Source: Bispira polyomma (Eukaryota). From it: a stretch of 64,000 bases of DNA. This document shows, piece after piece, positions 26,561 to 55,873 of this stretch. Every line of letters starts with the position of its first letter. The stretch's first letter is position 1. The stretch is taken from positions 18,104,001 to 18,168,000 of the forward strand of contig OZ287758.1 of NCBI GenBank assembly GCA_965649765.1, given 5' to 3'. Under the pieces are notes generated by a model, which saw only the letters and a program-made list of their open reading frames with translations, searched no databases and was not told where the DNA came from. The position numbers and the translations under genes are program-made.

Positions 26561-29500
26561 CCCTTATACCGTCTACATACATTTATGTATGTGCTGATGA
26601 CTTGTCTGTTTCTCTTGCAAGGCTTTCATTGAGTGGCATCCTGTGAAAAGATCAGCTGTGGGATGTCATGTCATTTTGATGACGGTTCAGCATAATAGCC
26701 AGATGACATTATCTTCTTGGCCTATTGACATACATATATGGTATAGTCATATCGGTATAGAACGCGGCACTACTTGTTTTCCAGTTAGGTAGTTGACTGT
26801 TTTGTCAGACTTACATGCTTCTCCTGAAGTGTCAAGAGTAAGTCTAATGCCTTATCCTCAACAATTAATGCTTTAAAACTCCTTAATTCCTTAGGTGGGG
26901 CTCTGTTTTACACAAATAACCCTCCTCCTTCAAGGTTGGATTCAAGCATTAGTAAGGATAAGGTAAAGTATTTATCGCAAAAAAATGTAAAAATTTTATT
27001 GTAATTTATCTTTTTGGAAGATAAATACTTACCTTATCCTCACTAAACTGGATCCCGTCCCAGCCAGCTCCACTTTTATTTGTGGAAACGTCTCCCAAAT
27101 TAATTGTGAAGGCACTTCCCGCGCATGCGCAGTGAGGTTGGCGAGAATAATTTAAGTCAAATCACAAGAATAGTCTTAGAAAAAAAGACTGATGTGTTTT
27201 TTATTGTCGAATATTTAGGTGCACTAAATTAAAAGCATTAGTGAGGATAAGGTAAGTATTTATCTTCCAAAAAGATAAATTACAATAAAATTTTTACAAT
27301 TTATTTTTTTATTTCGTTTGTAAAATAAAATTTAACCTTTAACCTCCCAATTACCACATATTTTGTTATGCCCATTTTTTGTGGAGCCAATCAGATTCGT
27401 AGGTTTCAAAAGGCATTTATACATGTGACAAAGACTAGGGTTGGGGATGTATATACAGTAGAATCTGTGTAAGTCGAATGTGCAATATCCACCATAATTA
27501 CTTCGAATTATGGTAAATTCTGTCAGACCAAAAAACTCTTAACACTTGCAGTAAGTATGGGCGATAATAACGTATGTCTAGTATGACGACATATAGGCAC
27601 TCGTAAAATTAACTATTTTAAAGTACAAACATCTTTCTTAGTTTTAAGGAATCTACTAAGTACATTCCAATTTCAATTTATACAACCAAATTGCACTTAG
27701 TGTACATAAAAATAGTTATAGCTCGAAGGCGGTAATTTATGCAAATAAGATGAAAGGCGGCCCGTGTCATATAAAATAGGATTAATTCAAAGTGATTTTT
27801 GGGTAAGTTTATGTATATTTTGATGAATGTTATGGATCAGACATCTAAATAACCTTAATTGGAAATAAATATATCTCCACTAAATGCTCTTTTTAACAAT
27901 AGCCGTATACAAATATGTGGCTCATGAGGACATACAAAATAACAATAGTGGACGGCGACCAGTTAACGCCCACCCAAACACACAAAAACGGAAATTAAAA
28001 ATATTTCCCAGTCACAGACCACCCGTGTATTTTCGGACAAGCAACATGGGCACCTCGAATCCGTTTTGCAATCGTGTCTCACGGATCTGCCCCACCTAGA
28101 AACAAGTATTTTACCAAATAACCTGTAATATCGCTCATAAAGGTACGAAATAACAGTACCAATTGACGCCCACCCTCATTCAAACGACAAAAAAAATATT
28201 TGTGGATTAAATGATAATCCTAATTTCACTTCAATTACCAATTTTATGCTCTATTATCACTGAAACATCTGTGGTTTGAATCTTTTAATGCATCATGGAA
28301 ATTTGTTTATTTTTTCTTTACGGTAGGCATGAGAGTAATCATTATTTGGTCCATATTTCTATTGAAACAACAACTTCTACTGCAAACCCATCAAGTGTTA
28401 AAATGGATCTGTGAAGCGTAAATTTTGACACCTTTGATTATTGTGAGGGACATACAAAGGTCAAAACTTATTTTTATATACAAGCAATGAAATTATTACT
28501 TCAATACTTAAAGTCTTAATTAGATGTATGATTATAAATAATAATAATGATATTTCCATTGTGTTTACTATATATTATATATTTATGCAACAACTTTTTG
28601 AGTTTTAAAGCCTATTAAACTCAATGTCAAGAAATGTATCACAAATCCAATAGGTCATTTAAGTTCAGCTCAATCATTTCTGTAAAAAACAAAATACCCA
28701 GTGAAACCAAGAATATGTGATTTGGTGATTCACTTCCTACGTACAGGGATCTGTGTAGTAGTCTTAATACAGGCTTATATTTTGCACATTTTTAATTCTT
28801 CAATATTTATGTTTTATTAAACGTTTACTCTCTTATTATAAAGCTATTATATATATTCTGCAGTGACAATGTATCTATTACTGACCAAACATTGTTCATT
28901 CATGTTTCAGTATTTTATAATGTTTTTCAACTGATTATACATTGTTTTAACACTTCCAGCATGTGTATTTATAATTTTTGCTCATATTAAGTATTTATTG
29001 GAAAGGTTATTCACTGCCCAATTAAATTTTGTGATTATAAAAAGAGTATTTTTAATGATAATTCAATTCAGGTGTAATGTTTAAAGGAAATTTGTTTGGA
29101 CTTATAAAAAGGAGCTAGTTTGTTTCCTCTCAAAGGATATAGCTAACTACAGGACATGCTATCGGCTGTGTGTGACCAGCATTAAACCATAGAGTGGGAA
29201 TGTAATTGTTTAAACGAAGTAATATGCACTTGACACCTATTTTTACCTAACTTTGATAAATGTAAAAAATAATCAAAAACATGCATGCAACATGTTGAAT
29301 GTTGTGAAGTATTTGTTAAAGTCCGGATATCATCAAAACAGATACACTGGAGTTTGCATTGCAATAACAACAAGTAGGTACAGGTGTGTAAACTGCAGAA
29401 AGGGCAATACCGATTAATAACTGCAGATTCATCATAATTTCTGTGGTGCTTTCTACCAGGTTGTACCTATGGTTGAAAATTTAAACAGTGAGTAAATGAT

Positions 29501-32500
29501 AGACTAATGAGTTGTCAACTGGAGTTGACAATGTCATACATCATTTCATATGTTATCCATTAAAGGATTAATATTTTGTTGATGTGAAGGTACTTCACAT
29601 TGTTTTTCTTCAGTCACAGTTGGCTCTGTCTGTGTGAATTTAGTTAAGCAGATACACTCTTGCAAAGTGTCCAAATAATACGCATTATTAACTTTTCCAA
29701 GCATCAATTGTTTACTTTCCCCACACTAAATTAACCAAAGTTGAAGACTCGTAATAAGTGAACCAGGTTGGACTGGTCACGATTAACAGCTTGACAGAAT
29801 CCATGGTGAATAAGTCGTGGCCTAGAAGCTGTACAGCTGTTAAAAGAGTAATTATCCATAGATGATCTAAGCTTACATGCGTGTCGCTAAAGATCTATGC
29901 TCAGAACATATATTTCAAAAGTAGCAACAATACCATATACCCGGTGCAATGTGGAAATATTCGTGTGTGCGAATTTTGATTAATTTTGGAGGTACAGAAT
30001 GAAAAATAGCCAGTTACTCAATTCAAACATATCAAACTCCAACTTCAATGTACTTTTTGCAACCTTCATTTTTTCAATTTATATTTACCTGTAAAAGTGT
30101 AACATGTGTGAGTGAAACTGCAGTTAAATATAATGAGCCCACATTGAAAGTTTTTCTCATTACTTAAACGTTGAAACTCATGGAAAAAGTTATTGCTTTT
30201 TGACATAGTTTGGCTTCAATTCCAAAGCAAGAACTGATGACTATCCATCAGTCAGTCCAAAGTCAGGTTAAAGGTGGTGGAGTTTAATTGTTACAAATGA
30301 CCAACAGATCTAAATATGTAGAGTATGTTGCAGCTGCCATTGCATAGTTTCCAGAAGGTGTCTTCCACTGTTGCTGTTTCGGCAATAGCAATACGGTTAT
30401 TTAATCTCGGCCTACCGGCAGATACATAGTGGCTTGGAGGAGCACTGACAATTGGGAAGCAATGCACACAAAAAAGCTTTACTATAGGTCAATGGCAATG
30501 CATTGTCTTCCAACCTCAATCATAGTGTCTTCTATTCTCAATCAAAGTATGTGTCTGGAATAAAGTTGGCAGTACACTTGCTGACGGCTGGTGGTTTGTA
30601 AAGCAGGCAAACCTTAACCAAATGTCCAAATAAGATTCCCCTACACATTGGCAGCATCCACAAAGGTAGAGACATTCGAAGCTGTTGCAGTCATTAACTG
30701 AAGTATATTAAGGTAAAAATGGAATCAAGTGTAACCTCAACTTAATTGCCAATACTTTCACAAGAGCCCACCTCTACTTTTCAATAATTACTGTTAAAAT
30801 TTTGAATGAAAAAAACACATTCTCTTTACAGTCCATCCCTACATTTTCTTAAGTTCAAGTTAAAAGCCCATGGGCTATGATGAGGGAGTTTAGGGTAAGC
30901 AACCTACACAAAGCAAGGCTAGTGACACTGAAAGGGAGAGGCACTTCTCAAATGTTAATAACTGCATGCAGCCTGAAAACATAAACTGAATGAACAGCAG
31001 CGGCACCAAAACCAACAGTTAACTGTAACAACAAGCAATTAAAGCAAGGAGAGTAGCAGTTGCAGAAAAGAGAATATGTCATTGTAAGTAAGGATATACT
31101 ATAACAGAATGGACAAAGTGGACATAATTATGAAAGACAGATAAAGCCAAGACCTATAATTATGCCCTTTGTATGACAGTAGCATACAACTTCTTCACTA
31201 GCTATATTTGCAAGATTTCCAAACAAAAGCAACACATAGAGCAGCAATTTAACAAAATACAGTTATGTACAATCAACTACAATTAGCACATTTAAATGTT
31301 TCCTTCAAAGCATCCATACGGACCCCAAGGCATATGCAGTGGAACCACTTGTTGTAGGTGTCGCAACATACCCATTGTATAGCCGAACTTTTGCCTTTAC
31401 CCCGGCCCTTCTTTAGAGGTGGCACTTCCAGGTGGCACTGTTGACATTTGTCCGAAGTTATCAGCTCTTCATCAAGAAATGGCTCCTGCTTGGGAGCACT
31501 CTTGTTCTTCCCCTCCATCTTCCGTTGAAGATCGCTCTCTAACTCTATGCCAGTTGTACGTGCCAAGTTGCACGTGACAAGTCGCTTCTTCTCTTTTGCA
31601 GGGTTGTTGTCTTTTAGAACTCCAAATGCAATCTGCACAGCGGGGGGAAGCTGCCTCACTGAAGGTAATGGATGGGGATATAGGCCACAGAGTTCACAGG
31701 GAGTGCTGCTGCTGGTGGTACCAACTGCCTCAGAAAGGACGCTAGGGGCCGCACTTGAAGTTGATGTTATCGAGGACACGGTCATCCCTGATGTGGAGGG
31801 ACATTGGTGGACACTGTACAATGTTAGATATTGGAATTAGACATTACCTCGAACATGTTGTTACTCGTGCTGACATGTATTAATGAACAATTACTGAGGC
31901 AAATCTCATTATTCACATACAATGAACGTGTCAAGATTAAACAAAGTTATATACACCATGGACCACAAAGTGGGATAGAAAGAGTTGTGAATATATTAGT
32001 AGCCAGTATACAATTGACGTTGACACCAGGTATGAATGTTCGACGCTATTGACAGTCTGTGTAAACAGAATTAAATAATTTATTCCATTCACTTGACTGT
32101 TGCCAGATCTTTGCCTGTGGTCTAAATCAAACATCATTGCATGTGTCACTGACATGGAGCACTTGAATTCCTATTCCAATTGCAACACCTAAACCTTTAA
32201 GTTATAATGACAGAGTTACGCATTATTGCTGAAGTTACTGTTACATCATAGTCAGCAGAAATTAATTATTACATACAGTTTGTCAAAGAATGTGTGCCTG
32301 TTTAATGGTAAACACAGGCATAAGACATGATAATACGCATAAGAAAGTTTTTTTCAGACATTCTACTGAAACCTACCCAGCACACTTAACCTTTGAAAGG
32401 TCAATAGCAGTAGGGTCGAATGGCCACAGTCCCGACCTCTGAAATGAACTTTTAACCAGAGATGGGGTAACAGCCAACCTAATTTGGTTGGGTTTAGCGT

Positions 32501-32691
32501 GCACCAGTTAAGTACCATTTTAAAATTTCCGTTTCGCGATTTGTAAAATTCTTACTGGTACCTCGAGTTATGGCGAAAAACATTACACATTTTGATTAAT
32601 TACAGTTCTTTTTATCATATTTACTTTGTCTGTCTTATAGGGCTTTTCTTGCCATTTATCACCTAGCTGTTTAACCTTCTGTTATTATCGC

Positions 32692-33032
32692 CCACATTTC
32701 CCGTTTTACGCATTCGTTTTTCTTCTGCTATTTTCGCATTTCCTTTTCTTCTATGTGACTTAGTTCACATATTTTTTATACTACAAGTGTTTTTACATAG
32801 AATAGACTACATCTTTTATTTTGATTCTGTCTAGCTGTGATTTATATTTGGTTCTTTTTCTTGCCACATTCCCCGTTTTACGCATTCGTTTTTTTCTGCT
32901 ATTTTCGCATTTCCTTTTCTTTTATGTGACTTTGTTCACATATTTTTATACTACAAGTGTTTTTACATAGAATAGACTACATCTTTTATCTTATTCTGTC
33001 TAGCTGTAATTTATATTTGGTTCTTTTTCTTG
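32692..33032 (+). repeat. Two tandem ~172-bp units in the LINE 5' region
   Basis: ccacatt-cccgttttacgcattcg... starts at 32692 and again at 32864. Confidence 0.85.
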
Positions 33033-33054
33033 CTACTGCTCCTTCACCTCTGAG

Positions 33055-36000
33055 ATGTGGAAGTTCTGTTTAACACTTCTCCCGTGTATGATTCTGGCCA
33101 GTGTCAGATTACATAAATGGAGCGCCTGCTCTCCATCCAATACACCTTTTTTCGACCAATTTGCACTTGGTCCATCTCTACTAGCCTCCCTGGATAAGGT
33201 GAACACTTCTTTTTTAGCCTTTCAAATTCACATTACCCGCCGTCCAAACCCCAGGGTTAACAGTATTTGGATCCCTCTGTTGACTGCGCTCTGCGGGGAT
33301 GTCAGCATTAATCTGGGCCCCCCAGCATCCTTGCTTAAGATCGGTGCATTTAATGCCTGTTCCTTGCGGGATAAGGCACCTGGGGCTATCGACTTAGTCA
33401 TAGCCCAGGACCTGGATGTTGCTGCCCTCTCCGAGACGTGGCTCAGCAGTAGGGATACAACATCCTTTTTATCGGATATTACTCCTCCGGGCTACAAATT
33501 TCATCAGTTCCCCAGGTTGCACAAACGCGGGGGAGGAGTTGGCATTTTTGTGAAAAATACCCTTTCCTGTGAAATTCTAAAAAACCAGTCCTACTCGTCT
33601 TTCGAACACATTTCATGCAAAATTTCAAACGGTTATCATTCATTCCTAGTTTCCTCCTTTTACAGACCACCCATCCCTTCTTTAACTAGTTTTACTCAAG
33701 AGTTTTCCGAATTCCTTGAGACCCTTAACCTTCTCCCATTTGAAGCTATCAACATCAAGCTCGACATAGAAAATACTACGACAAAAGATTTCAACACCCT
33801 CCTTAAGACTTTTGGGTTCTCACAGTTTATCTCTACTTCAACCCACATCCACAATCACATACTCGATCTGGTAATCGCAAGACCAAATTCAAATCTCATC
33901 AGAGAATCATGGGTAACTGATGGGATTTCAGATCACCTAGCAACCTTCGCCTATTTAAATTTACCAATACCTGCCTCACATAAACCTCGTGTCATAAAAT
34001 ATAGAAACATCAGAAAAATTAATATAAACAAATTCAGAGACGATATCCTGGAAACTAATCTCATCAAACATCCATGCAAAAATGCTGAAAGCCTTAGCTT
34101 ACAATACAATCACTGCCTTTCTACTGTCCTTGATAAACATGCGCCATGGGTATCAAAAACCCTTCCCCCAACTAACAACCATGAATGGACCAATGCCGCC
34201 ATTACAGAAGCCAAAAGACGCAAACGCCAACTTGAGCGTCAATGGCGACACACAAAATCCTCCTTAGACAGAAGCCGTTACCGTATCGCCACAAATAATT
34301 ACAACAGGCTAATAACTGATGCCAAAAAGCAACACTACGACTCCATCATCACCGAAAATCAGGATAATCCCAAAAGGTTATGGGCCTCCATAAACAAAAT
34401 TCTACATCGAACATCAGAGAAAGTTCTCCCCATAAACCACTGTCTTACTTTTTTAGCAGAAAAATTTGGAAAATTTTTTATAGAAAAAATCAGCAACATT
34501 CGTGACGCCTTCCCAACGATACATCACTTCAATCCTCCAGCCCCAGGATATAAGGTTTGTAACCTGTTTCATTTTAGTACACTGTCAGAGCTTGAAGTTC
34601 TGAAACTCATCAAATCCTCTACTATTAAATCTTGTGACTTAGATCCCATCCCAGCAGTTATTCTGAGTCAATGTCTTTCCCACCTGTTTCAAGACGGCAA
34701 ATGTAACTCCCTTGATTAAAAAACAAGGGCTTGATAAAAACCATCTCAAAAACTACAGACCGGTGTCAAATCTTAGCTTCGTCTCAAAAGTCATCGAGAA
34801 AGCTGTGGCTAAACAAATTTCTGACCACCTTAATAGACAAAACATTGAAAATCGCCACCAGTCTGCTTATAGAAAATTTCACTCTACAGAAAGTGCCCTT
34901 TTTTCCATCAGCAATGATGTCAATCTTGCACAGGACCACAACGACACAGTGGCCCTCACCCTTCTGGATCTCTCAGCTGCATTCGACACTATTGATCATG
35001 TCCTGCTCTGTGACACTCTCAAGCAGTGGTTCGGTATAAATGGCAGTGTCCTTAAATGGATCAGATCCTACCTTACTCTTAGGGCACAAAGAATTAAACT
35101 AGATGATCACCTATCATCTTCCATAAAACTTCCATATGGAGTACCCCAGGGATCCGTCCTTGGTCCTCTACTTTTCACCCTTTATACACATCCTCTCAGC
35201 ACTGTCATCAATAAACACAATATAAAACGCCACATGTATGCAGACGACACTCAAGTCTATTTCTCCCTCAATCCACAAAACGCAGATACTAACATAGACC
35301 TACTTGCAGACTGTCTGTCTGATGTCCAGGCATGGATGAACTACTCCAAACTAAAGCTTAACCCTGACAAAACAGAATTCATCCTCATAGGAAACAAGAA
35401 AAACAGTGAACTCCTAAAATCTTTGTTTCCCATCTCCCTGCTGGGAAAAGACATACTACCTTCCAAAAATGCTAAAAACCTGGGTGTCACTTTTGATTCA
35501 GCTTTTTCGTTCGATACTCATGTTGCCAACATCTGTCGCTCCTGCTATTACCACATACGCGACATCAAAAGAATCAGAAACCACTTGTCCATGGACACAG
35601 CGATAATTGTGTTAAATGCCCTTGTAAGTAGCCGCCTCGACTACTGCAATTCTCTCTTGTACGAAGCAAATAAGTCAAACATTAAAAAGCTCCAGTCCAT
35701 CCAAAACTACCTATGTAGGGTCATTTTTCGCCTGGGTTGTCGCACAGACGTTACTCCTTACCTCAAAAAATTACACTGGTTGCCCATTAAATCTCGAATT
35801 TTGTTTAAAATTCACGTTACCACTTTTAAGGCTGTAATCACTCAACAGCCACCCTACCTTGCCTCCCTTCTTTCCTTTAGTAACCGCAAGACAGGCAACA
35901 GACTCTCTGTCACTTCGGTCAGACCAATCAGAAAGGCGGGTTTCAGAGCGTTCTCCACCGCAGCTCCACGGTTATGAAACAGTCTCCCAGTTGACCTCAG

Positions 36001-36073
36001 ATCAGTTGACACACTTATCGGTTTTAGGAAAAAGCTTAAAACCTATCTTTTTAATCTTGCCTATCCACCTTAG
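33055..36073 (+). pseudogene. LINE ORF2 (endonuclease + reverse transcriptase)
   Basis: ORFs 33055-34719 and 34712-35977 are joined by a deletion/frameshift near 34685. TGA replaces Trp in RL(W)NSLP at 35975. The GDF motif of the APE domain is missing. Confidence 0.88.
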
Positions 36074-37207
36074 CTTTCCTCGTGCACGCTCCCACTTCCT
36101 TCCTTACGACTCTGCAATTTCCATGGACTTAATGATTGGACTAATGATTCTGCTGTTGCGCTTTAGAAGATGCCTAGCATCAACAAAGCGCGTTAAAAAT
36201 CTATAATAATAATAATAATGCTGTTTCTCCAAGTAATAGGGAACAATGACCTTGACATTTTAGTGCACGTGGCTGCACGACCTGCAGTGATGCACAAGCT
36301 ACGGTATTTTTGGTTCAGAGGACCAAAAACACCAACATCTAACGGCTGTAATATATGTGTGGTGTGAGGAGGCAATCCTAGGAACTCCACCTGAAATATC
36401 CGGTTGCATATGCAGTGAAAAAGTAACACAATTGTCATCAAGAGGGACTGCCACAAACTGGATCAACATTTGCCCATTCAATACCAGGTAATTGTTATCA
36501 ACTACAACATCTGTACTGCAGTGCTATGTGGGAAGAAGCAAGGTATATATTGGAATAAGCAAGCACAGGTGTCAAAGGCATGCAATTCTTGTTAGAAGGC
36601 TGGGGTACATGTTACAAAACAATTTATATGTGCAGCAGTTATGACTAAGGTACATGAAGTTGCTGCTTGTTGCAAATTGAAGTGTGTTTGTCCAATGGGT
36701 CCATTTTGAACATTATAGTAGAAGGCGTCTTTATAAACTAGATAGAAACAAACCTGGTTTTCTTTTGCAAGTTTAATAACTTCTGCTGAAATGTGGCTGA
36801 CATGGTTGTCCATGATCAACAATACCGGCTTGTCTGGCCCACAGTGCTTCATAAAAATTTCCTTAAACCACTGACAAAACAGCTCTTTATCCATGTAACC
36901 TGTGGCAAAAATGATGATATTGACAGTGACAAAGATCAAACAATAAACAATGCTGCAATTGAGGGACAACATGTAACAGGTTTGTAGTTGTATTCCTCCT
37001 TCTACAATGATATACATACCATTGGGACTGTAACCGTAAAGCCATGACTTTGGCAGATCATCCCTCAAACAAACATTCGGCAGGCCCTTCTCAAAAATAA
37101 GGAATGAAGGGAGCACTCGTCCATCGGCGCAAATGCAGGTCATACCTGTGATGTGGTCTATATTGGAAACCTATTCAGTAAGCAGAGCGTATGAATCATA
37201 CATAGGT

Positions 37208-43200: not shown

Positions 43201-45049
43201 GTGTGGAAATAAATAGTTGCAGTGTATAACTAAGTTATCATTAAAGTGTTATTCGAGTGATCAAGAAACACTCTTCTGTATTTTCCATGGGGCAGCTCTT
43301 CACTTCTTGGAAGGAGGTGTTGGTCTGTGAGGTACCAGCAGAAAATAAGACACTGTTGTCTCACAGCAGATCTATTGAAGCTGCCCAGAAGATGCACCTG
43401 TATGGTTTCAGAAACTAACAACCCTACAAATCTTCCACACATATTGTGTTGGAATTTAATGAATGCAATAGTGCATGACAATTATTTCAATGTTCAAGTG
43501 TATATGTCGACCTACCATGTAAATGTTGAAAGATCACCATTTCAAGAGCAAATTTAATACATAAAAATGTATTATCTCAGTAAGTAAAAATCCTACAAAT
43601 CTTGACAACTATTGACAACAAAGTGTATATGTAGACCTACAATGTACATCTGGAAATAGCACCATTTTAAAAGCCAATTGATACATCAAAATTATTTTCT
43701 CAGTGAGTAAAAATCCCACAAATCTTGTAGACATATCATATGAAATTAAAATTATTGTAGTTTTTTTACAGTGTTGTTTGAATAAAATACATGTAATGTT
43801 TACTAATACTTTGATTGCTGAAAAAGACACCTACCATTTTAATGTTGTGGTATCTAGAGGGACTGTTTTATACTTCAATTTAAAAAAATTGGTGGAGCTT
43901 TTTTTTTTGCTTTTTTCTTTCATTTCTGCATTTTTGGTCACCAGTCAATTTCTCTAAAACAAGCTTCGAGTGATTTCCAACTTTTATTGAAAAGTAATAG
44001 TGAGTAGGACTTAATTACATGTGGTAGTACTGTACACATTTACCAAAAGACAATATATAGGTGTACACCGAATATTTCAAGTTAATTTATCTTGATGATA
44101 ATATTATAACACTGGTTATAATTATTTTTTTAGTTTTAATTATTTTTGTTATGATTTCTATGGAACCATATTTTTAAAACATATTTTTCCTATTAATTCT
44201 GGAAATATACAAAAAATTCAACACAAAATATATCTACTGATGGTCCATATAATATGATTGTATGAACACTTTTGAAAAATACATAATGAAAGGTTTCTAA
44301 TGATACCCAAACCAGATTTGTATCTTTAATAATGTCAGAGAAAACAGTTTCATGATTACCTGATTTCCGGGGCTAATAATTATGTGGACATGAAGTCATC
44401 TGTCATAAAAAAACTGTGGGGGTGTATTATTTTTGCATATTGTCGGCAAAATAATAAATTCAGCTAAGATTCATAATTCCACTGGTTATGTTTAATGGCA
44501 AGTATATCTATTTTAAAATGGCCATATATCAGTAAATATCAGACAGAATTTTAATTTGTAAACGTTTTAGAAAGTGTTTAAATTACTTTTTATGGATATA
44601 TTAATCTTAAAATTGTAGCTTCAGTAACTTTGTTATTTTTTGTAAATCTAGCACTCGTATCTGACTGACAACAATCAGTCGTTATATAACCTACATCAAT
44701 AAGCTCCTCCCCATGCACACGTCAGAATTAATTACTGGACGGAGAGTTGGCGGGAAACACTCGGCAAAGATATATCAGGAAAAAAAAACTGCCAATTATT
44801 TTTTTCATAGCAACAGGCAGGCCGAATAAATCAGAATACAAAAAACGGCAATAATTCCTTAAAGATAAGCACCAAATGTACCAAAAAAAAAGTTGCAACT
44901 TCGAGAACACATAATCTATATATATGCCGAGTTTCAGCGCTCCAATGGCAACAGTCTCTGATATTTGCTTGTCCTATCCCAGTATCCAGGCTACATCATC
45001 TCCATAATATTATAAGTAGATTGGCCTTGATTGGCCAATCTACTAAAAA
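37208..45049 (-). mobile_element. 7.8 kb HINE/Helentron-like element filling transposase intron 4
   Basis: Hairpin agtagattggcc-ttgatt-ggccaatctact plus A-run at 45015-45049; stem-loop gtggcccatagggccac, subTIR gtagattg and aacaag end at 37208-37246. Internal degenerate direct repeats at ~41137, 41625, 42165, 43330. Confidence 0.6.
37849..38630. mobile_element. MITE with ~37-bp TIRs
   Basis: gactattataccgacgtagttggcattttaactccca versus tgggagttaaaatgccgactacgacggtataatagtc. Confidence 0.7.
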
Positions 45050-45722
45050 GCATTATATTTATGGATTTCATTCTACAAATAACAATTAACAAACTTTCTT
45101 AACTACCAAAAATGAGATTACCAGGCTTCAAAAAGACATCTATGATTCACATGTCACATAGCAACTTACAGTCACCGCCATGGCTTGCAGTTGTTCCTGG
45201 ACACAGAATTATGCATTATTTTCAGTTTTGATTTTGCAGAGTTCATAATATTAATCAATAATGGAACTGTAACTGAAAAACGGGTAAATGTAAATTGCAA
45301 CATGCAATAGCAGATCATGCTCACTACAATAACAATATCTTTGAGTTTTTGCCTGTAAGAAGCTGGCCAATAGTAGCAATACCTTCTGCTGGTACATTGT
45401 TTGGCCCTTTAAGCGATACGCTTTCTGCCGGGATGCAATGTGGCTCGTCACCCCGGTCTCGTCACAGTTAAAGATACGTTCTGGGGAGGACTCCAACTTC
45501 AGCTTCCTCAGAGTTGACTCTGTTGACCATTACATGCACAGGAAACAGTAGCTACATCAATGATGGTTACTTCTTAATCCAAAATTATGTTTTGTTAACA
45601 TGAAACAGTATGCTGCAGCAGTTATGCAAAATGTCATTTCCATGTCAAGCTAGGACAAATTTACTTCTAGCCATTAATGAACACTTATAAGATTCTGGTT
45701 ACAATGCACGTAATTTTACCTG

Positions 45723-45972
45723 TTTTTTTTTTTTTTGAATTGGGATATTTAACGTCCACTCTAGTACCTGTTTAGGTTGGGACGGGTGGTTAGAAACGCT
45801 GCAGGAAACATTGCATACAGTTGATGAAGGTTCTGCACTGAAACCAGCGGCCCACAGTAAGGAACTACCACCTTTCCTACATAGGCTTGGACAGGATTTG
45901 AACTCACGCCGCCCAGAGGTGAGACACCAGTGATTGTGAAGCGCAATGCTTGCTAACCACTATGCCACCGCC
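45723..45972 (-). mobile_element. Same SINE family in transposase intron 3
   Basis: High similarity to the 8973 and 55653 copies; poly-T on the + strand. Confidence 0.9.
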
Positions 45973-46318
45973 TGGAAGAATAATTGCAGGGAAAGTCTGA
46001 TTCAAAGTTATTTATTTGCAAGTTTACCTCTCCTGAAAAACAGTGACAACAAAATTAACAACAGATTTACCACATACTAACCATACAGATTAAAGAAATG
46101 GTCAATGACATAATCATTGGCCTGCTCTATCCGTGATTTGTCAATAGTTTCTGGGATTCTCCAGGTGATGTGCGGGTGACTTGCTTGGAACTGTCGAAAC
46201 CATTTGTCACTCGGGCCACGCTCCAGGTTGAACTTACAGTTGTCCATTCCTGTAGGACCACTCTCTGTAACAATGTCCTACAAAGTAATTTCACATGAAC
46301 TACCACGATTTAAACAAT

Positions 46319-46647
46319 TTATTGTGATTTATGAAATAATAGGATCTCTGGACAGTAGTTGTCCTCATTAAAGTCCATTATATCGTGAAAGTGATTTGTA
46401 ATGGCCTCGGCAATTTCATCAATGTATAAAAAGTCATAGAATTCATCCCTAGAAAACCTAAGCAGTTTATCTATTAAATTATCTCTAACAGCTGCAGCAC
46501 AGGGATGGGCACACTTCAGCAGCGTCATTATGTGCTCGCATATACAGTCACAATCCAGCCATTGGCTGATAACCCTTTGTAAAGCGAATCCTTGATTGAA
46601 GGTCCCCATGGCTTCTCGACTTTGAATGGCGTCAAAGACATTATTAC
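46319..46647 (-). CDS. Putative alternative terminal exon inside transposase intron 2 (120-aa product if joined to exon 1)
   Basis: Acceptor ctttgtatctccag followed by a 109-codon open frame; phase 1 matches the exon-1 donor at 53780. Confidence 0.45.
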
Positions 46648-47026
46648 CTGGAGATACAAAGACTGAGAAACATGTTGAAGTTTGTTTACTTATTATACAA
46701 AATGGAAAATATCATTACCACTATAACCCCGCGAAGCTCAGTTCGGGTAAGGGGGAAGTTCTGGTTGGACATGTACAAAATGTAGTCGACAAAGGCCGCC
46801 TCCTCATCAGGCGACAACATACAGTCCGGACCACACTTGGCCGTTGCTTGGATGCCTTTCGCCACATGGTCTCTTAATGTGCGTCTGGATATGCCATATT
46901 CTTTTGCCGCTCCTCTTACACTCCCCCCACCAGATCGTACTAGCTCTACAGCTTTGTCCATGCTTTCACAGTCGTAGGTCTCTGTTGGTGTAATAAGTTT
47001 GTATACATGCAAACATTAGGTTTGTA

Positions 47027-47520
47027 CTATACCTCGAACAATTGCGCCCTGCAGGCAGTTGGAGCAGGGCGGTAGGGCGGTAATTTGATATCTGTTCAAT
47101 ACACAGTTTACTAGGCCAATTGATTAAAAAGATGTAGCTTTATAAATACTTCACATGAAATATTCGTTTTGGTATCAAAATAAAGCTCTAATTATGTAGC
47201 TTGTTAATTTAATTTTCAAATAAAAGGTTATATGTTTTTGTGTTTCTTCAGAAAAAAAAAAATATTATGAAACAGATGAGAAAGTTTAAATTGACAGGAG
47301 TTAATTATTAACTAGAATTACTCAAAATCATTTCTTTGTATTCAATTGTACATAATAAAAACTTTCAGACCATACCAAAACGAATATTTTAGGTGAAATA
47401 TTCACAGATATATCCATTTAAGCAGTTGACATTTTTGAGAAAATCACCAATAGAAGTCCAGGACGGTTTTCAGGGCGGTATCCGAATCCACTTCACTTTA
47501 AGCAATTGTCCGAGGTATAG
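47027..47520. mobile_element. TA-flanked MITE (494 bp)
   Basis: TA|CTATACCTCGAACAATTGC ... GCAATTGTCCGAGGTATAG|TA, plus an internal inverted repeat (~47150/~47370). Confidence 0.8.
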
Positions 47521-48180
47521 TACTAACCCAAAGATTATGGTGGTAAAACTTTTGTACTACAGAAATTGTGAGTATATTTTGGTCATAGCAGCTAAACATA
47601 TTTCGGGCCTGTTATGTGTCTTCATAAATGTGTGGCAATATCAATTTTCATTACTATTTGCAAAATTCAAACTTGCTTGGGCATATCTACATGTAACCAT
47701 GTTTTTGATGTCCAGTCTACGGAAGGGGCTGCAACTTAGGAGGGAGACAATGTGTAGATGAAGACAATGATGGACCAGATTTACAGTTTTTCGCACATTT
47801 GGGCATTTATTCTTAAATATATATTAATTATTACATTAGTAATGTTAAAACCTAAAACTACACTATATTATACACAATTTTAAGTTTACTTTAAGGTCAC
47901 CTCAACCTTAGCTTGAGGTGAGCATAAAATTTCTGAGTTAAGGTCACCTCAACCCTGTCTTGAGGTGAGCATAAAATTTTGAAGTAGGGTGGCCTTAATT
48001 TTACTTTAAGGAGACCCTTTAGAAAGTGAATTTAATTTAATATAAGGTTAACTTAAGGGTAACTTATTTTAAGGTAAACTTGAGGTTTTATATTTATACA
48101 AAGTTTAATAATACTGTTAAAGTATGTGTAAAACTACATACAAGGTATATATATAAAATGCCCAAACGCCATACTGGTAG

Positions 48181-49302
48181 TTAGGTAGTTATAATGCGTT
48201 GTAGGGAACGAGCCACTGTAGCCGAAGCATTAGGAGTGGACTGGAGATACGCCCATACAGCTGAAGATCTCCAGCCACCATGAGCCATTATTGACTGGAG
48301 CTGAACATTGTTATCAAAGGCCAACGTGGCCCCAGACCTACGGAATGCATGGAATGTAAATGAAGCAGGATTCAAAGAAAGTTTTACAATAATTTCTCTC
48401 AATGTACCCCTTACTTTGTAAGCAGTGAGGGGTAATAAGTGGTTCCCCACTTTACACACAAATACCTGAGAATTGATACAATTTTTATTAATCCGAAACA
48501 TGTATTTAAGGGCTGCTACAGGGCAGAGCTGTGAATCCCCCAAAGAGGGAATCTGGACCACATGGTACTGGTTATATTTCTGCAAATTTTTTGCCCAATG
48601 CAGTATCACATGGACACCAGGTGAACCCCATACAAAGTCCTCATTTGTGAGATGTCGCTCTGGATCAAAATGGGATACCCTGGAAGGGACCAAATTTGAC
48701 AATCTAAAAAACCCAAAGAAGGCTGTTAAAAACAGAGCCTTATACACATAACAATGAGAAACATATTTACATTGATGGACAATAGCCCTAAGTATGGGCA
48801 CAGTAATTATACCTTTGAGCTGGGGGGTATAAGGAGTGGATAAGGTGAGTGATTTTAGAAACAATCGAATCTGTGGATGAGCAAAAACATCAGAGGGACA
48901 GTCCCACAAGTGGAATTGGTGCTTGATAGCAGAAATATAATTCTGAATGGAAGGGGGCTTCAGCCCCTGTTGGGCTAAGTATTCCATGAACTGAAGCACG
49001 AATTGCAATGATATAATACTGGTATTCCCCATAAATATGGAGAAGGCAAAGAAAAGCCTGACGCAATTGCTATATACTTGATTTGTTTTTGGTCTCAATG
49101 CAATATGTAATCTCGCCTGGGCGGCATTGGTAAGGTAAGTCTGCAAAGGAGTACCTGAAAAATTAAAGTATTTACAAATCAGCATGGAGGTGGTAGTGTT
49201 TCTTTGTGACAACGCACCAGGTTTTTTCCCTAAGTTGGTCTCGAATATTTTCATTAGTGAAGCAAGGGATAAACATACGTGATAAATAATCAGCATATAC
49301 AT
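48181..49302 (-). CDS. Tyrosine recombinase (YR)
   Basis: FFGFFRLSNL, K, CPV, FHAFRRSGAT, HGGWRSSAVWAY: the R-K-H-x-x-R-W-Y catalytic set is intact. Confidence 0.92.
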   Translation of the reverse strand: MYMLIIYHVCLSLASLMKIFETNLGKKPGALSQRNTTTSMLICKYFNFSGTPLQTYLTNAAQARLHIALRPKTNQVYSNCVRLFFAFSIFMGNTSIISLQFVLQFMEYLAQQGLKPPSIQNYISAIKHQFHLWDCPSDVFAHPQIRLFLKSLTLSTPYTPQLKGIITVPILRAIVHQCKYVSHCYVYKALFLTAFFGFFRLSNLVPSRVSHFDPERHLTNEDFVWGSPGVHVILHWAKNLQKYNQYHVVQIPSLGDSQLCPVAALKYMFRINKNCINSQVFVCKVGNHLLPLTAYKVRGTLREIIVKLSLNPASFTFHAFRRSGATLAFDNNVQLQSIMAHGGWRSSAVWAYLQSTPNASATVARSLQRIITT

Positions 49303-51412
49303 TTTTTACTCCCGCAATGTGGACCAGTTCCAATTTTATATTGAAACGGGCTGTCTCCAGCCACACACATCGGGCCATGGTAGCCAGGGCTTGGTCCCTG
49401 AAACGACTTGAATTGAGTGAGGCCACCACTGCTGCATTGTCACACCACACTCAGACTTTGGTATTCCTGAAATATTGTCCCCACATGCGCAGAGCCACTA
49501 ACACATTCCACATTTCAAAGTGAACAATACCATAAGTGGAGGGAGTGTCAGCGGGGAGAGAGGCAGCATATACACAATCACTCCACATAGCCCCTATACC
49601 CTGCAAGGAGGCGTCAACATACAGTTCATGAGTGTCACCACCCTTCAAGTGCATTTCCACTACACCATTGAAATCCTGCAAGAAAGCATTAAACCAATTA
49701 AGGTTGAGTCGAAAGTCATTTGTTAAAGCTATTGTCTTGTGAGGATAAGTGTCCCTCAGTAACTTGAGCATTCGATTTAAGAAAAGCCTGGCAGGGTGGA
49801 CACACCTATGGACATACAATAACTTTCCCAATAAGGATTGCAGCTGTCTTCGGGTACACTGAGTTTTTTCCCCCCATTGTTTACATTCACTCTGTATGGA
49901 GGCCAATTTACCAGCGGGTATTGTTAACGTGCCAGCACGAGCATTGACCATTATACCCATGCAAACAACAGCCTCAGTGGGCTCACACACCTTATTGGGG
50001 TTAATTGGGAGACCAAGAAATTCAATCAATTTGTACAAGTGTTCAAAGGAGGACCTAGCCTTTCCACAAGGCTCTACGGAGACTAGGTCGTCGATATAAT
50101 TCCACACTTTAAAGGATTTTTGTTTCATAAGGCGACGTATACTGTCTGTTACACGCTCACAGATGGCCGTGCCATGCTTATACCCCATCATGACGGCAAG
50201 GTCCACATAAGTTTTTTCCCTCCAACTTAAACCCGCATACTGGTAGCAATAGGGATCTATCCTCATATTCCTAAACGCGCGGGACAAATCGATCTTGTAC
50301 AACTTAGCGGAGGGGCCAATCTCATTAATACCATCCACCAGCATGTCTATGGTAGGGAGAGTAAGGCTGAATTCGAGACCATCATACATTCCGTTACTCA
50401 CATTACTGTTGACAGAGGGGGCATCATGGGGCCATGAAAGGTCAACAATAATACGTCTACTCTGGTCGTCCTTTGGACGTGTCATAACAGGGGAACAATG
50501 TATTTGTTTAAAGGGTTTATCCTGAAAAGGGCCAGCAATAGCCTTATGCAGGCGCTCAGTGACAAAATAATTGTCCACGTCCATGGGATACTGCAATGCA
50601 CTGTCATGGTTTTTAACCTTTTCATTGAACACAAATCCCTCAGTATTAATGTCAAGGGGGAAACCAAATTCCAAGTACTCAGGCAATAACACATCCCTAT
50701 CCCCCTTCAATACAGTTCGCCAATTATCTATGTTTAGCTCAGAGGGGACGGGGACCCTCGCCCCTAGGTAATTATGGCAATCAAATGAGTGAACCTTTCC
50801 ATGAGACTTAATCGCCCAGTCCTCTAATGAATCATATTCAATAGGATTTCTCTCCCCCCTGACATGTAACACTTGGTTATACAAACACATAAAGCCAAAG
50901 TTTTCACTCGACTTTCTGGCAACGGTGAAAACGTCACAATCACCTTTAATAGGTGAGTCTACAGTTTTGTCAACACAGGCCTTGGCCTCTAGAAGGGGTT
51001 TGCCCTGATTTGAATTTTCCAGTGAACTGGAACGAGTGGTGTTAACACCAGAATTTGAAATCACCTCAAGGGTGGAAATTAGGGGTTCGCCCTCAGAACA
51101 ATACACATCAGAAATGGGGGGACATGCAATTTCCCCCCCCCCCCGACATACAGACTGCACATTGCCACCTTTATTCACAACAACGTCACTTGACGCCTTG
51201 TGACACACTATATTTACACTGGTTTCAATGTTATTTACACGAGGTGCAGATCTTTCACTATCAGAGTCTTTAGATACAATTTTTACAGCTTTTACATTTT
51301 CAGATACTCTAGCACAAGTTTTATTTTGACATGCCTGATCACACTTCTGTAAACTACGTTTTTTAAAATCACAATAAGCCTTATTCCAAAAATCCCGCGT
51401 ACCTACTTGGAG
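49172..51412 (-). pseudogene. RT/RNase H ORF2 with one internal TGA (49451-49453)
   Basis: RRIIVDLSWP, KIDLSRAFR, NYIDD, YVDAS, VWCDNAAVV, HIAGVKNVYADYLSR. The frame is open right up to the gag stop. Confidence 0.88.
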
Positions 51413-52639
51413 TCAATTTTGGTTACCCTTGTTTGAGTCTTTATGGTAACCCTTGGTTTTATCACAATTGATTTCTTTGTGAAACTGATTTCGCTTCCCC
51501 ATATTGTAACATTTAGAACAAGCGTGTTTGAGAATAAGGTTGCCAAAAATGTGATCATCTGTTTGACTGCACGTGCCCTTGTTAAATGCACTGCACATTA
51601 CAGTGGTACTTTTTCCCTTGGTTTTTTCACTGCCCCCAGCCCCTTTAGTTTCATGAGAGGAGTTATCTTTGAGAGTACGTTGCGTTAACCGTGCTCGGAG
51701 ATCATGAACATCCCTTATTTCATCCCAATTTACTTTACCCTTCTCCATTTCAAGTAGGAGTTGGCAATGGGCCGTTTTAACAGTGTACCAAGAAGTCTCA
51801 AGGGCATCACGCATCAACTGCATGCCATATTTAAGCATATTGTCACGAATGCGACTACTTTTCTCTTCATATATACAAGCCAAATATCCCTGAAACCACA
51901 TGATGGGGGTTAGCTCATCATATGAGGGCTGTTTTTTAGTTGAAGTGATATAACATAACTCATGTGGCCAGTTTACAATATGTTTTACACAGTTCTCAGC
52001 AGTTCTATGCAACCCTGACTTTATCTTTGGCTTACCCTGTTCTGGGGACTGGAGGTACTGACATCGGTGCCTTTGCAAACGTCTGTCGACCTGAGCTTGA
52101 ATGTCCTCGTTGGTTCTAAGGTATCTCTGGCTGGGCAGGATGCCGTCATCTAGCTGCTGGACGTCGTCTCGATGGAAGTCGTGATCATAGTGAGAACCCC
52201 CTAGGCGCCGACGAACGGGGTTTAAATCATACTGTTCCTCAATGTCTAAGTCAGTATCCTGGGCATAACCCCGACGTACAGGCGAACTATGAGATGGAAA
52301 AGCAACTTTAGCATTTGAGTCCGACTTTCTTTGTTGCAGTTCCTGCCTGACTTCGATCATGTCGTCCTCAAACTTCTGTAGTTTATTGAGGATTATATCC
52401 AGTTTATTAGTTGCTGATGTATCACTGTCTTCTTCCTGCGTCGTCTGCTTCTTCTTGGTCTTACCAGAGGCCTCGGCCGTTCCCACAGGTGCGGTTCCGC
52501 TGCCCTTCTCTGACTGATTACGCTTCCTGCCCCTGGTAACCGGAACACTCAGCACAGTCAAGTCCAGAACACAGTCCCTTCCCACAGGGCGATGGTGCAC
52601 GATACTGCATCTCTTGCAGTAAGCCGTCTTAGTGGCCAT
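51413..52639 (-). CDS. Gag-like ORF1 (N-terminal CxxC-HH-C and C-terminal CCHC-type zinc motifs)
   Basis: aaaATGG start; YCKRCSIVHHRPVGRDC; WPHE; CSAFNKGTC...HACSKC...H...C. Confidence 0.8.
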   Translation of the reverse strand: MATKTAYCKRCSIVHHRPVGRDCVLDLTVLSVPVTRGRKRNQSEKGSGTAPVGTAEASGKTKKKQTTQEEDSDTSATNKLDIILNKLQKFEDDMIEVRQELQQRKSDSNAKVAFPSHSSPVRRGYAQDTDLDIEEQYDLNPVRRRLGGSHYDHDFHRDDVQQLDDGILPSQRYLRTNEDIQAQVDRRLQRHRCQYLQSPEQGKPKIKSGLHRTAENCVKHIVNWPHELCYITSTKKQPSYDELTPIMWFQGYLACIYEEKSSRIRDNMLKYGMQLMRDALETSWYTVKTAHCQLLLEMEKGKVNWDEIRDVHDLRARLTQRTLKDNSSHETKGAGGSEKTKGKSTTVMCSAFNKGTCSQTDDHIFGNLILKHACSKCYNMGKRNQFHKEINCDKTKGYHKDSNKGNQN

Positions 52640-52964
52640 TTTCGATGTGATATCCAATAGTGATCTACAATAGTCCACTTTTATAACAGTTCAACTTTCT
52701 GAAAACACAAAGTGAGATGCTTGCAGTTCACACTTGTTTGTTTGGTTCCAGTGTGAAAGAATAAATTAACAATGGAAAATTTATATCATATATCTATGAA
52801 TTTTCAAAATGGAGGGAGGCCACGCCAGAAGCGCGGGAAATAAAGTAGTCACGTCCCCAAACAAGTAGGCAGAAAAGCCAAAACAAGCATGAAATGCAAA
52901 TCCCAATTGCAACAGCACTTCTCCCAGCAGATGAATTTTGTGCTGAAAACCCTAACAACATGCT

Positions 52965-52972
52965 CTTTTATA
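52965..52972 (-). promoter_or_regulatory. Candidate TATA box for the YR retroelement
   Basis: TATAAAAG on the minus strand ~330 bp upstream of the gag ATG. Confidence 0.35.
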
Positions 52973-55184
52973 GGCAGAAAGGTGACACCTGAGAACCTTC
53001 TGACATAGTAAACTAATTAACCAGGGGGTAGGAAGGGGGACTGTTTAGGACAGGATGTTGACTTAAGAGGCCCCCCTTCTCAGACTGACACCAAGTGCTA
53101 AAGCCCCTTGTACACAATTATAGTTACACCCGTTGACATTAAATGGAATGGATATTAATTGGAACGATTAAACAGTAAATTGCAAGGTTATAGCTTCAAT
53201 AAAACAAATTTAAGATAAAATTCCACTGCCATATATTTTATTACAAGCCGTTATAATTATGTCCAATAAATGTCCCTGTCAAACAATAACCCATATTTTA
53301 AAGCAATTTCATTCATTTTTATCCTGAAATATGACAAAATGAATGCCCATTTGTTATTCTGGTGATTTCTTAAGATTTACTGTTACAATTTTTACCAAAT
53401 TAAGCTACATAGCCAATTAGGTAGTTGACTGTGCCACAGAAATAAAATATCCATGTTACAGTTTTATCAGTTGCACAATGGGATAACTAGCTTGAAAATG
53501 TCATTACTTTCTCAAAACACTCATTTACTATCACTTTCCACAAGAACATAACCAGTGACTTTGTGTTTGAATTAGGAGTTGACCTACAAAAGTATATGGT
53601 CAAATACTTCATGCCCCCAATTTGTTTACACAGGAAGTGGCTGAGGAGACATGAGCAGCTCAGTTTCATCAAAGAAGTAAACAACTTCTGGAAATCATAT
53701 AAACAACCGGAATTAACAAATACAGAGTTAGTTTTTATGTTGCTTAACTAATTATAGATACAAGTGTATGTTTACTTACTCTTACGTTTTCTAATTGAGG
53801 AGTTATTGGACATTTTACTTTTACTTTAAAGGCAACACCACTAATCTAAAGTGCTTTACTGGTCAACGAGTGCCCTGAACGGCCTTGGCAGGGACAGCTG
53901 ACCAGTAACTGACCAATACGGGTGATATTTACGGCTGCTGGGTGGGCGTTAACTGGTACACGGGCGTTAACTGGTCGCCGCCCACTAGATGTAATCTCGT
54001 GTCAAACAACACAATCTTTCCATCCCTCTGATTCGAGTAATCCTTTTTTTTCCCATGCTAAACCTAAGCTTAAAGTCAGAAATTTGCTTCGAATAATGGC
54101 TTTAAGGGTACCTCGAATGTTCGAGGATTTCCTAAAGATTAAACTAAAAATTGTTGGGGATCTGAAATTCATTCGAATTTCGGCTACTTTTGAGTATTGT
54201 CTATTCGAGTTTGACCAAATCCACTGTACAATGTATACTGACAGGATATATCTATTTCTTCTAAATTGCGAGAACGCACGCCTTCTAACTTTGGTTTGGA
54301 CCGCTAGACGGCGCCACACTACAGTCCTTTATTTGTGTACAAGGGAGACCTTAATCGGAAGATGAATTCTATTTTTTAAAATAATGTACGAAATATGACC
54401 AAAGAAGAAGAAATTGCCTTTATTCAATAAAAACATTATTATATGAAAGTTTGACAAAATATCATCTATATGCTCATATAGTGGCTTCAATCCATTAAAT
54501 TTCTTTAGTTTGCAAGACTTTGATAGCTTTCGAAACCGCCATTATTTGTAGTACTAAATATACTGTAGCAAGTATCCAATATGGCCACCGACCTAATTAA
54601 ATCACACGAGACGGTGATTGGCTGAAAATCTGAGCCGTTTCCAATGCGCATGCCCAGTAACTGAAGCATATCGCGTCAAAGGTAAGACCTCTTAGACGGG
54701 TTAATTGAAACGGCAACAATGAGGAGATTAAAGTACCAACTTCAATATAAGGAAAGTAAACCGTCGATATACACTAGCAGTATATACTCACATATTCGAA
54801 CTATATATATGTATATATATATATATTTTATGAATATATCCAAGGAAGAAAAATGGAAAATTACGTTGTGTATATACCAAAATATAACGGATATTAATGG
54901 CGAAATGCTAGAATATAGATACATACATCTATACAAGGAAGAAACATAGTGAATAAAAATAATTTAAAATCAAGCATTTTTCTGGACATTTCGGAACACA
55001 AGAAAGTAAGATAAACTCTTTATTTTGTCGTAAAATAACATTTCTAAGAATTACTTCACAGTATGCAAAGTATATTTTGAAATATAGAAAGCATTATAGT
55101 TTCTTCTAAAAACAGAAAATACTAGACACGGTACCTTTAATTGGTAGCCAGACGTTTCAATTTTTACAAGTAGATCCATTATGG

Positions 55185-55528: not shown

Positions 55529-55652
55529 AAATTGAAGAACTTTGAAATTATTGACTGAATAGTTTACTGCAAAGATGCACTTATGTAGTGACAGAGGAAA
55601 TGAGTTGATACAATGAGATAATCTTTTATTTTTTTTACCATGTCTTGTAGTA

Positions 55653-55873
55653 GGGGCCGTGGCGGCCTAGTGGTTAGCAAGCATTGCGCTTCACAATCAC
55701 TGGTCTCTCACCTCTGGGCGGCGTGAGTTCGAATCCCGTTGATGCCTATGTGGGAAAGGTGGTAGTTCCTTACTGTGGGCCGCAGCGTTTCCAACTACCC
55801 GTCCCAATATAACCTAAACAGGTACTAGAGTGGACGTTAAATATCCAAATTAAAATTAAATTAAAAAATTAAA
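55653..55873 (+). mobile_element. tRNA-derived SINE with 16-bp TSD
   Basis: A box tggcggcctagtgg, B box gttcgaatccc, A-rich tail; TSD accatgtcttgtagta at 55637-55652 and 55874-55889. Confidence 0.92.

Follow-up and report, generated by a model that had tools for sequence, protein, structure and literature searches.

Tc1/mariner/pogo elements are the textbook one-gene transposons, and a stretch of 64,000 nucleotides of Bispira polyomma DNA (GenBank assembly GCA_965649765.1, contig OZ287758.1, forward-strand positions 18,104,001 to 18,168,000; the whole stretch is called the window here, and positions are counted within it) raises the question of what kind of pogo-type element could occupy 26 kb, from 27948 to 53985, with a transposase gene that is split by introns and ends in a PHD finger. 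A preliminary description had read it as a 26-kb transposon with a nine-exon gene. Searches of the genome (1.035 Gb in 75 contigs, the window lying on contig C11) showed that the element is genuine, but that 26 kb is peculiar to the window copy, a disabled member of a mobile pogo-superfamily family of about 9 kb whose sister copies measure 8.6-10 kb. They also showed that intron 2 of the transposase gene holds a conserved coding exon, here called ORF2 (open reading frame 2), which the preliminary description had not reported. The reading as a whole, that of a disabled copy with an eight-exon gene for a DD35D-PHD transposase and an intron-2 exon likely spliced from exon 1 to give a small accessory protein, is offered as an evenly balanced proposal.

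Ends, mobility and transposase gene

The terminal inverted repeats (TIRs), 24 bp each, lie at 27948-27971 (plus strand, 3' end of the gene) and 53962-53985 (minus strand, 5' end), agree in 23 of 24 bases, and are flanked by TA on the left (27946-27947) and on the right (53986-53987), as had been described; a 14-bp core of the repeat is found again at 28158 and at 53944. The host sequence around the element is a high-copy repeat and a source of empty sites: a search with it listed 40 matches and gave ten loci (window included), and the nine other copies fetched all carry the site aacaaTAgatgtaatc (aacaaTAgatg) with a single TA, the very allele that the preliminary description had predicted. Because empty sites hold one TA, the target-site duplication is TA. 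With each end as query, both ends paired up at ten other loci on eight contigs; copy counts are lower bounds, and the family has at least 11 two-ended copies. Fourteen other loci were fetched, and both TIRs were found by pattern in nine of them and in the window, with TA on the right in 10/10 and on the left in 9/10 of these copies. Academ-type elements have TAG...CTA ends and a 3-bp duplication; this assignment was tried and rejected, since the empty site holds one TA and the flanks match beyond the TA in only one of ten copies.

Many dispersed copies with different flanks keep the TIRs, the gene and the 3' region in collinear order, as the notion of a mobile, intron-rich, PHD-bearing pogo family had implied; the TIRs are not those of unrelated short elements, and the gene is not single-copy. 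The element moves by cut-and-paste into TA. Seven introns, and a frame that is open once an inserted long interspersed nuclear element (LINE) is subtracted, would also suit a single-copy domesticated host gene flanked by unrelated short repeats, and the TLEWI elements have been so interpreted (10.1101/656579). This collinearity, together with the stops and frameshifts carried by most copies, makes the likelihood of such a gene negligible.

With the LINE subtracted, the transposase gene has eight coding exons and seven GT-AG introns on the minus strand, amounting to 1746 nt with one terminal stop and a product of 581 amino acids (aa); the frame is free of stops and frameshifts, as reported before, and the nine exons and eight introns of the preliminary description were not recovered. 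Exon 1 (53780-53813), 34 nt beside the 5' TIR, has an ATG, 11 codons, a basic end and a phase-1 donor, is conserved in both subfamilies (A, which includes the window copy, and B), and was found in 10/12 copies. Exon 2 (46719-46981; phase-1 acceptor, phase-0 donor) encodes HTH_psq and the first half of a CENP-B-type helix-turn-helix (HTH), the second half of which is in exon 3 (46082-46277). Exon 4 (45383-45519) contains the first catalytic Asp (CDETG) and is followed by exon 5 (37020-37170), by exon 6 (36754-36899) with the second Asp (MDNH), and by exon 7, which is divided by the LINE into an upstream part with the third Asp (36220-36390, LQPLD) and a downstream part (32377-32483), and which is unbroken in sister copies. 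Exon 8 (31273-31813) encodes a linker, the C-terminal PHD and the stop. The catalytic triad is D184/D291/D327 with 35 residues between the last two, the DD35D spacing already recognized. DDE_1 scores above its cut-off in exons 6 and 7 and HTH_psq reaches 38.6 bits (cut-off 20.4), and the score of HTH_Tnp_Tc5 is weak (E 0.078) because intron 2 splits the domain. There may be an untranslated extra 5' exon. A 59-bp in-frame stretch at 47091-47033 was tried as an exon and rejected: it lies within a miniature inverted-repeat transposable element (MITE), its phase does not fit exon 1, and it has a stop in a sister copy.

Among the eight subfamily-A copies examined, only the window copy, LINE aside, keeps an open frame and a start codon; in the others the ATG, a splice site or one or more exons are gone, or there are frameshifts, and no intact autonomous copy was found among these eight.

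The PHD of the window copy reads CDTY, with Tyr in place of the fourth Cys and thus without one zinc ligand. The replacement had been noted correctly, but it is private to the window copy, as Cys is found at that position in every other copy whose PHD aligned. A sister copy has the Cys4-His-Cys3 pattern and passes the PF00628 cut-off of 24 bits (25.6), which the window copy fails (19.3). The nearest solved PHDs are those of KDM5B, ALFIN-LIKE 3 and KDM5A, and both Trp of W-V-x-C-D / W-F-H align, residues that we take to form the H3K4me3 cage in the KDM5B and KDM5A fingers. From this likeness, chromatin reading is plausible: the PHD would bind histone H3 tails and bias the site or timing of transposase action. 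What the finger of a transposase binds should not be taken for granted, because among the PHD-like C-terminal fingers of piggyBac relatives, another superfamily, that of piggyBac binds DNA and that of PiggyMac binds H3 weakly (PMC8086355).

A coding exon within intron 2

The ends of subfamily B are about 85% like those of A, and its introns are no longer alignable with A introns, except that intron 2 of both holds an alignable stretch. This stretch, ORF2, stays open for about 125 codons, beginning at a CAG|GT acceptor and closing with a stop whose position is shared by A and B; AATAAA comes directly after the stop in both. In the window, the ORF2 exon spans 46340-46647 (minus strand, phase-1 acceptor at 46647) and retains 102 of about 124 codons, a 312-bp deletion having taken its 3' end and stop; a complete ORF2 is found at locus L053, positions 2272-2648. 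Over 124 codons the A and B proteins are 54% identical, with the proportions of differing non-synonymous (pN) and synonymous (pS) sites at 0.28 and 0.88 and pN/pS at 0.32, compared with 0.36 for the HTH exon and 0.13-0.18 for the catalytic exons. The differences are distributed 42/32/71 by codon position, with an excess at position 3, the DNA alignment has a z of 22.8 versus at most 3.7 for seven true intron pieces, and stops occur in all five other frames. By these substitution patterns, ORF2 evolves as protein-coding DNA under purifying selection. Six copies within the family gave 7 synonymous and 10 non-synonymous variants in ORF2 (pN/pS 0.32) and 28 and 52 in the transposase (pN/pS 0.54), counts to which no transition correction was applied and which are too small to carry weight.

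In the genome, 16/16 ORF2 matches sit in copies of the ORF2-bearing lineage, and 10/10 matches to the record P0028 lie inside pogo elements; as in two-protein elements, a second conserved non-transposase ORF is confined to the element. A word-indexed database search with ORF2 alone gave no match, while a profile search of 1.84 billion representatives succeeded in finding four relatives in ENA records (E 4e-27 to 3e-10, 30-43% identity). A fifth relative, P0039, is a raw ORF consisting of the HTH exon, about 19 intron-like codons and then ORF2; its HTH is 48% identical and breaks at the same intron position. Both P0039 and P0028 have Ser-Asp at the putative junction, which at the protein level is compatible with a phase-1 CAG acceptor. 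Two metagenome scans for the context of ORF2 homologues returned 0 loci and one spurious 19-residue match.

Could ORF2 be a passenger, whether an exon captured from the host or what is left of another element, that is silent or persists for reasons of its own? The family does carry passengers (a short interspersed nuclear element, SINE, and a MITE), and most families of the clade are without ORF2, but such protein identity at saturated synonymous sites, the confinement to pogo elements in this genome, the lack of terminal repeats or a target duplication seen around ORF2, and its presence at the same place in the outside record P0039 make a passenger improbable. A lead in that direction came from Atlas feature look-alikes among fungal proteins, which are weak, 14-19% with a SWIM domain; they were dropped, as the SWIM-related (0.94, one query) and Ulp1-related (0.80, homologue) assignments disagree.

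The ORF2 protein is acidic (isoelectric point, pI, 4.5-6.0 in six sequences) and keeps the motifs WLDDDC, CxHPC and YCPE. Pfam assigned 0 families to five ORF2 sequences, and the structural model is all-helical (pLDDT 71). Fold searches gave helical bundles at best (Z 5.4 and 5.8, the latter with a root-mean-square deviation of 2.8 over 68 aligned residues) and no Foldseek match at E <= 0.001, a result from which neither a known fold nor a new one can be claimed. A complex prediction of ORF2 (1-112) with the exon-2 HTH, run without alignments, scored 0.00 and is no evidence either way.

The CAG|GT acceptor is present in 9/12 copies examined. The phase-1 end of exon 1 can join exon 2 as well as ORF2, and the phase-0 end of exon 2 is incompatible with ORF2; because the ORF2 acceptor is phase 1, splicing from exon 1 to ORF2 is the only in-frame route found. 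Judged by these signals, one promoter at the 5' TIR would probably yield either the transposase (exons 1-2-3...8) or, with intronic polyadenylation, exon 1-ORF2, a product of about 137 aa, acidic and helical, with conserved Cys and His. The choice of splice site and polyadenylation site would then set transposase against ORF2. The uninterrupted HTH-ORF2 frame of P0039 suggests another arrangement, in which ORF2 is the C-terminal domain of an HTH-ORF2 protein that arises by intron retention or an unseen splice and binds the element's own ends. In A and B, however, the spacer (71 nt and 81 nt, respectively) is out of frame and contains stops, the exon 2 donor (phase 0) does not suit the ORF2 acceptor (phase 1), no phase-1 donor common to both was seen by eye in exon 2, and P0026, a close relative (73% to P0039), was called without the HTH; we therefore regard an HTH-ORF2 protein as doubtful.

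As to function, a helper role is favoured: a frame kept under constraint between transposon subfamilies is explained most simply if it benefits the spread of the element. By analogy with MURB and VANC, we lean moderately towards an ORF2 protein that, if expressed, aids spread as a transposase partner or an anti-silencing factor. It would not be needed for the chemistry of transposition, because sister families without ORF2 are mobile. Cut-and-paste elements that keep a second, non-catalytic protein, as the window family would, include MuDR (MURB), VANDAL (VANC), PIF/Harbinger and CACTA, and MURB binds MURA and is required for heritable insertions (PMC12973397). These proteins belong to other superfamilies and have no sequence likeness to ORF2. 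They are encoded by separate genes and not by an exon nested in a transposase intron.

The main rival to the helper role is a brake of the P-element kind, namely a self-limiting switch in which polyadenylation behind ORF2 diverts transcripts and in which ORF2 (possibly a DNA mimic), an HTH-only product, or both, repress transposition. Transcripts stopping at the intronic AATAAA would lack the DDE core, exon 1-2-ORF2 splicing or intron retention would in both subfamilies run into a stop shortly behind the HTH, and the low pI of ORF2 would suit a mimic. The P element offers the precedent of one promoter whose alternative RNA processing gives transposase or a second product, and of the 66-kDa and KP repressors (PMC7776569). 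Its repressor is a truncated transposase from intron retention, whereas the alternative exon of the window family codes for a protein unrelated to the transposase, and a separate constrained frame of 125 codons would be unneeded for repressors of the P type. Constraint between subfamilies is also easier to explain if the protein helps the element to establish itself. We consider a self-limiting switch possible, though clearly the less favoured account.

Several observations weigh against the two-product, helper reading. The ORF2 acceptor was not found in 3/12 copies (one of which has a local deletion), and the basic end of exon 1 is weaker in subfamily B. The raw in-frame read-through of P0039 fits an HTH-ORF2 fusion as well, and P0026-P0032 were read at the protein level. 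ORF2 was found in 0/20 distant loci of the clade (outside A and B, fetched from the top of the exon-7 match list, 44-68% band; best hidden Markov model E 1.4), where intron 2 measures only about 100-440 bp, and four loci without ORF2 group near the ORF2 bearers (weak tree, support 0.72-0.84). The absence of ORF2 from all 20 distant loci implies either a late gain or repeated losses. The two splice paths are predicted, and the function of ORF2 is argued from analogy and selection only. Three sequencing runs of a single study all behaved as DNA and showed no spliced joint among the joints displayed, a result that does not bear on expression.

Size of the window copy and its inserts

The four closest copies are 8630-9428 bp, an older copy is 10.1 kb, and copies of subfamily B are 6.7-10.8 kb. 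Subtracting the LINE, a 7.8-kb block, the SINE and an Ngaro-type element leaves a backbone of 8824 bp in the window copy, in line with the earlier estimate of about 8.5 kb. Subfamily A copies are 1.2-3.6% apart, except for two older copies at about 7% and about 14%. The junctions of the LINE, the 7.8-kb block and Ngaro are spanned in 0/14 other loci, so the 26-kb form never moved: the window copy swelled to 26 kb via three insertions after landing. The check proposed in the preliminary description, whether copies share the nested Ngaro and HINE insertions, accordingly came out negative. The TIRs and TA are intact around the inserts and a second, older copy is also swollen, as might be expected of a 26-kb composite mobile unit ferrying large elements, but with no large junction shared, with inserts of the second copy that differ in kind and place, and with an Ngaro younger than the pogo copy, such a unit is very improbable. 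The second copy (C7:27643174-27672126, loci L065-L067) has reached about 29 kb by its own inserts and holds two LINEs with 66-82% DNA identity to the window LINE.

The LINE (32484-36219, plus strand) encodes an endonuclease and reverse transcriptase (RT) with one frameshift, has a TAA-repeat tail, and is flanked within exon 7 by a 4-bp TAAT repeat. The non-coding block in intron 4 (37214-45045) has hairpins at both ends, internal and nested repeats and an A/T-run insertion site, and may be Helentron/HINE-like, going by the features of that group (terminal hairpins, TT insertion, no coding capacity). An 81% relative of its left end occupies another site in the same intron 4 at L070 (C10:52.09 Mb). 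The Ngaro-type retrotransposon (47713-53114, minus strand) has ORFs in the order gag, RT/RNase H and tyrosine recombinase; it is truncated at one end, its second terminal repeat is missing, and its RT/RNase H frame is broken near 49452. The tyrosine-recombinase insert is assigned to Ngaro because in at least four sibling copies the terminal 210 bp are found again about 5.2-5.7 kb away, as split direct repeats. Ten other genome copies match it at 99-100% over 365 bp, in addition to older subfamilies; the Ngaro family is very young, and since its siblings are 99-100% alike and pogo copies about 3% apart, the insert is younger than the pogo copy. These three inserts are private to the window copy.

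The two smaller inserts have a different history. A tRNA-type SINE in intron 3 (45723-45970, minus strand), of very high copy, with an A/B-box-like head and an A-rich tail, has both junctions spanned in 4/14 other loci and one junction in a fifth, and its site is empty in the 7% copy; ARAGORN predicted no tRNA gene across the window. A palindromic, TA-flanked MITE-like insert in intron 1 (47021-47525) has its junctions in 5/14 other loci, and its site is empty in the 14% copy. Because they are common to sister copies, the SINE and MITE are cargo that moved along. The idea of nested elements as cargo thus stands for these two and fails for the LINE, the HINE-like block and Ngaro. The idea that introns act as safe harbours calls for no special mechanism: only about 1.75 kb of the 8.8 kb is coding, and it was an exon, exon 7, that the LINE struck.

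High-depth stretches inside the element at about 30750-31100 and at 53115-53430 are probably further small passengers, and the Ngaro insertion point is the edge of the latter. Many inverted pairs about 250 bp apart (for example C12:22744473/22744720 and C5:22762619/22762869) match the terminal 50 bp of the element at 84-88%, and are probably a MITE family moved by the transposase of the window family or a related one. Outside the element, the window contains tandem arrays at 7478-8482, 13914-14444, 17015-17596, 25687-26552, 57795-58399 and 59223-59644, and SINE copies resembling the cargo SINE at 8978-9218 and 55652-55868.

The wider clade and its place among transposons

With exon 7 as query, 150 of 501 candidates in the genome were scored as matches; the stronger of these have open frames of exon size, and most of the weaker have long frames with no intron. 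The 20 distant loci break at the same query positions as the window transposase, 17/20 have a GT donor at the intron-2 position, 17/20 have PHD-region matches, and TA-flanked inverted repeats 4.7-10 kb apart bracket 11/20. Because they recur in most of these loci, introns and PHD are clade traits. Among database relatives, 1/25 has a precomputed PHD and two more PHD-like ends were seen among ten that were read; both named relatives are from bivalves.

Several additional PHD-pogo families, rich in introns and 4.7-8.4 kb long, occur among loci L144-L183; their TIRs are different and start with C, none has ORF2, and some copies are nearly intact in appearance (for example C5:52553985-52559970, C12:35.42 Mb and C10:19.91 Mb). 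In the sister family nearest the ORF2 bearers (L154/L155, L170/L171 and L144), whose copies are much decayed, intron 2 is about 350 bp and contains, besides an internal CAG that resembles an acceptor, short open frames unlike ORF2, a possible further exon. In a distant family, five copies with the same score lie within 1.1 Mb of one another (C4:97985068, 98065112, 98312262, 99025993 and 99103607) and may reflect local hopping or segmental duplication.

The window family belongs to the pogo superfamily and is Fot-like by its domains; it is unplaced by the tree, which includes only unnamed or bivalve-named relatives and no named Fot transposases. It shares with Fot and Fot-like DD35D pogo elements the TA duplication, short TIRs, and HTH_psq, CENP-B-type HTH and DDE_1 domains (PMC7386202). 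Most Fot-like TIRs are 40-60 bp, however, and those here are 24 bp with internal core repeats. In Dupeyron 2020 such elements make up clades 33-40, and the Fot1 subfamily there contains six oyster sequences (PMC7325037). Passer elements are alike in DD35D, TA and animal hosts, but they bind DNA through BrkDBD plus HTH_Tnp_Tc5 or through HTH_Tnp_Tc5 alone (PMC7386202), whereas HTH_psq comes first here and BrkDBD is not listed.

Introns and PHDs in DNA transposons have precedents. TLEWI, a bivalve Tc1-like group, also has an IS630-Tc1-mariner transposase split by GT-AG introns (10.1101/656579), but with DD36E, two to five introns, TIRs mostly absent and possible domestication, in contrast to a DD35D pogo element with TIRs and recent movement. 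Ginger1, of another superfamily, is mobile with up to four introns and has a C-terminal PHD in one family (PMC2836005). Surveyed pogo elements measure 1.2-5.2 kb and have either a single transposase ORF or two (PMC7386202, PMC7325037), compared with 8.6-10 kb, seven introns, a PHD and a non-transposase exon here, and the words "intron" and "PHD" have 0 occurrences in the main texts of these two surveys. Extra ORFs in surveys of Tc1/mariner/pogo elements are those of the ciliate TBE and Tec (PMC7325037), and orf2 of Lemi1 is the end of its transposase (PMC1636448). A full-text literature search, in which supplements and most subscription papers were outside the scope, found no report of a pogo element with a PHD or an intronic accessory exon.

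The main texts of both surveys (PMC7386202, PMC7325037) thus lack this mobile pogo clade, with its seven conserved introns and KDM5-like PHD, probably because exon-split elements of 5-10 kb escape tblastn-and-flank pipelines; the transposases of the clade may be catalogued in Repbase or Dfam as Mariner-type entries. Through the PHD, chromatin-guided insertion could be put to the test in a superfamily that already serves gene delivery (Passer), and a single genome whose sister families either bear or lack ORF2 is a ready natural comparison. If the proposal is true, the nested accessory exon would provide an animal pogo element with a partner protein such as has been described mainly in plants, for Mutator, Harbinger and CACTA elements, and the splicing switch would be directly testable. 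It seems somewhat more probable than the converse that a pogo lineage has turned two-gene, in that a splice choice from a shared exon 1 would give either a PHD transposase or a protein of a new family that would tune spread or escape from silencing in animal germ lines.

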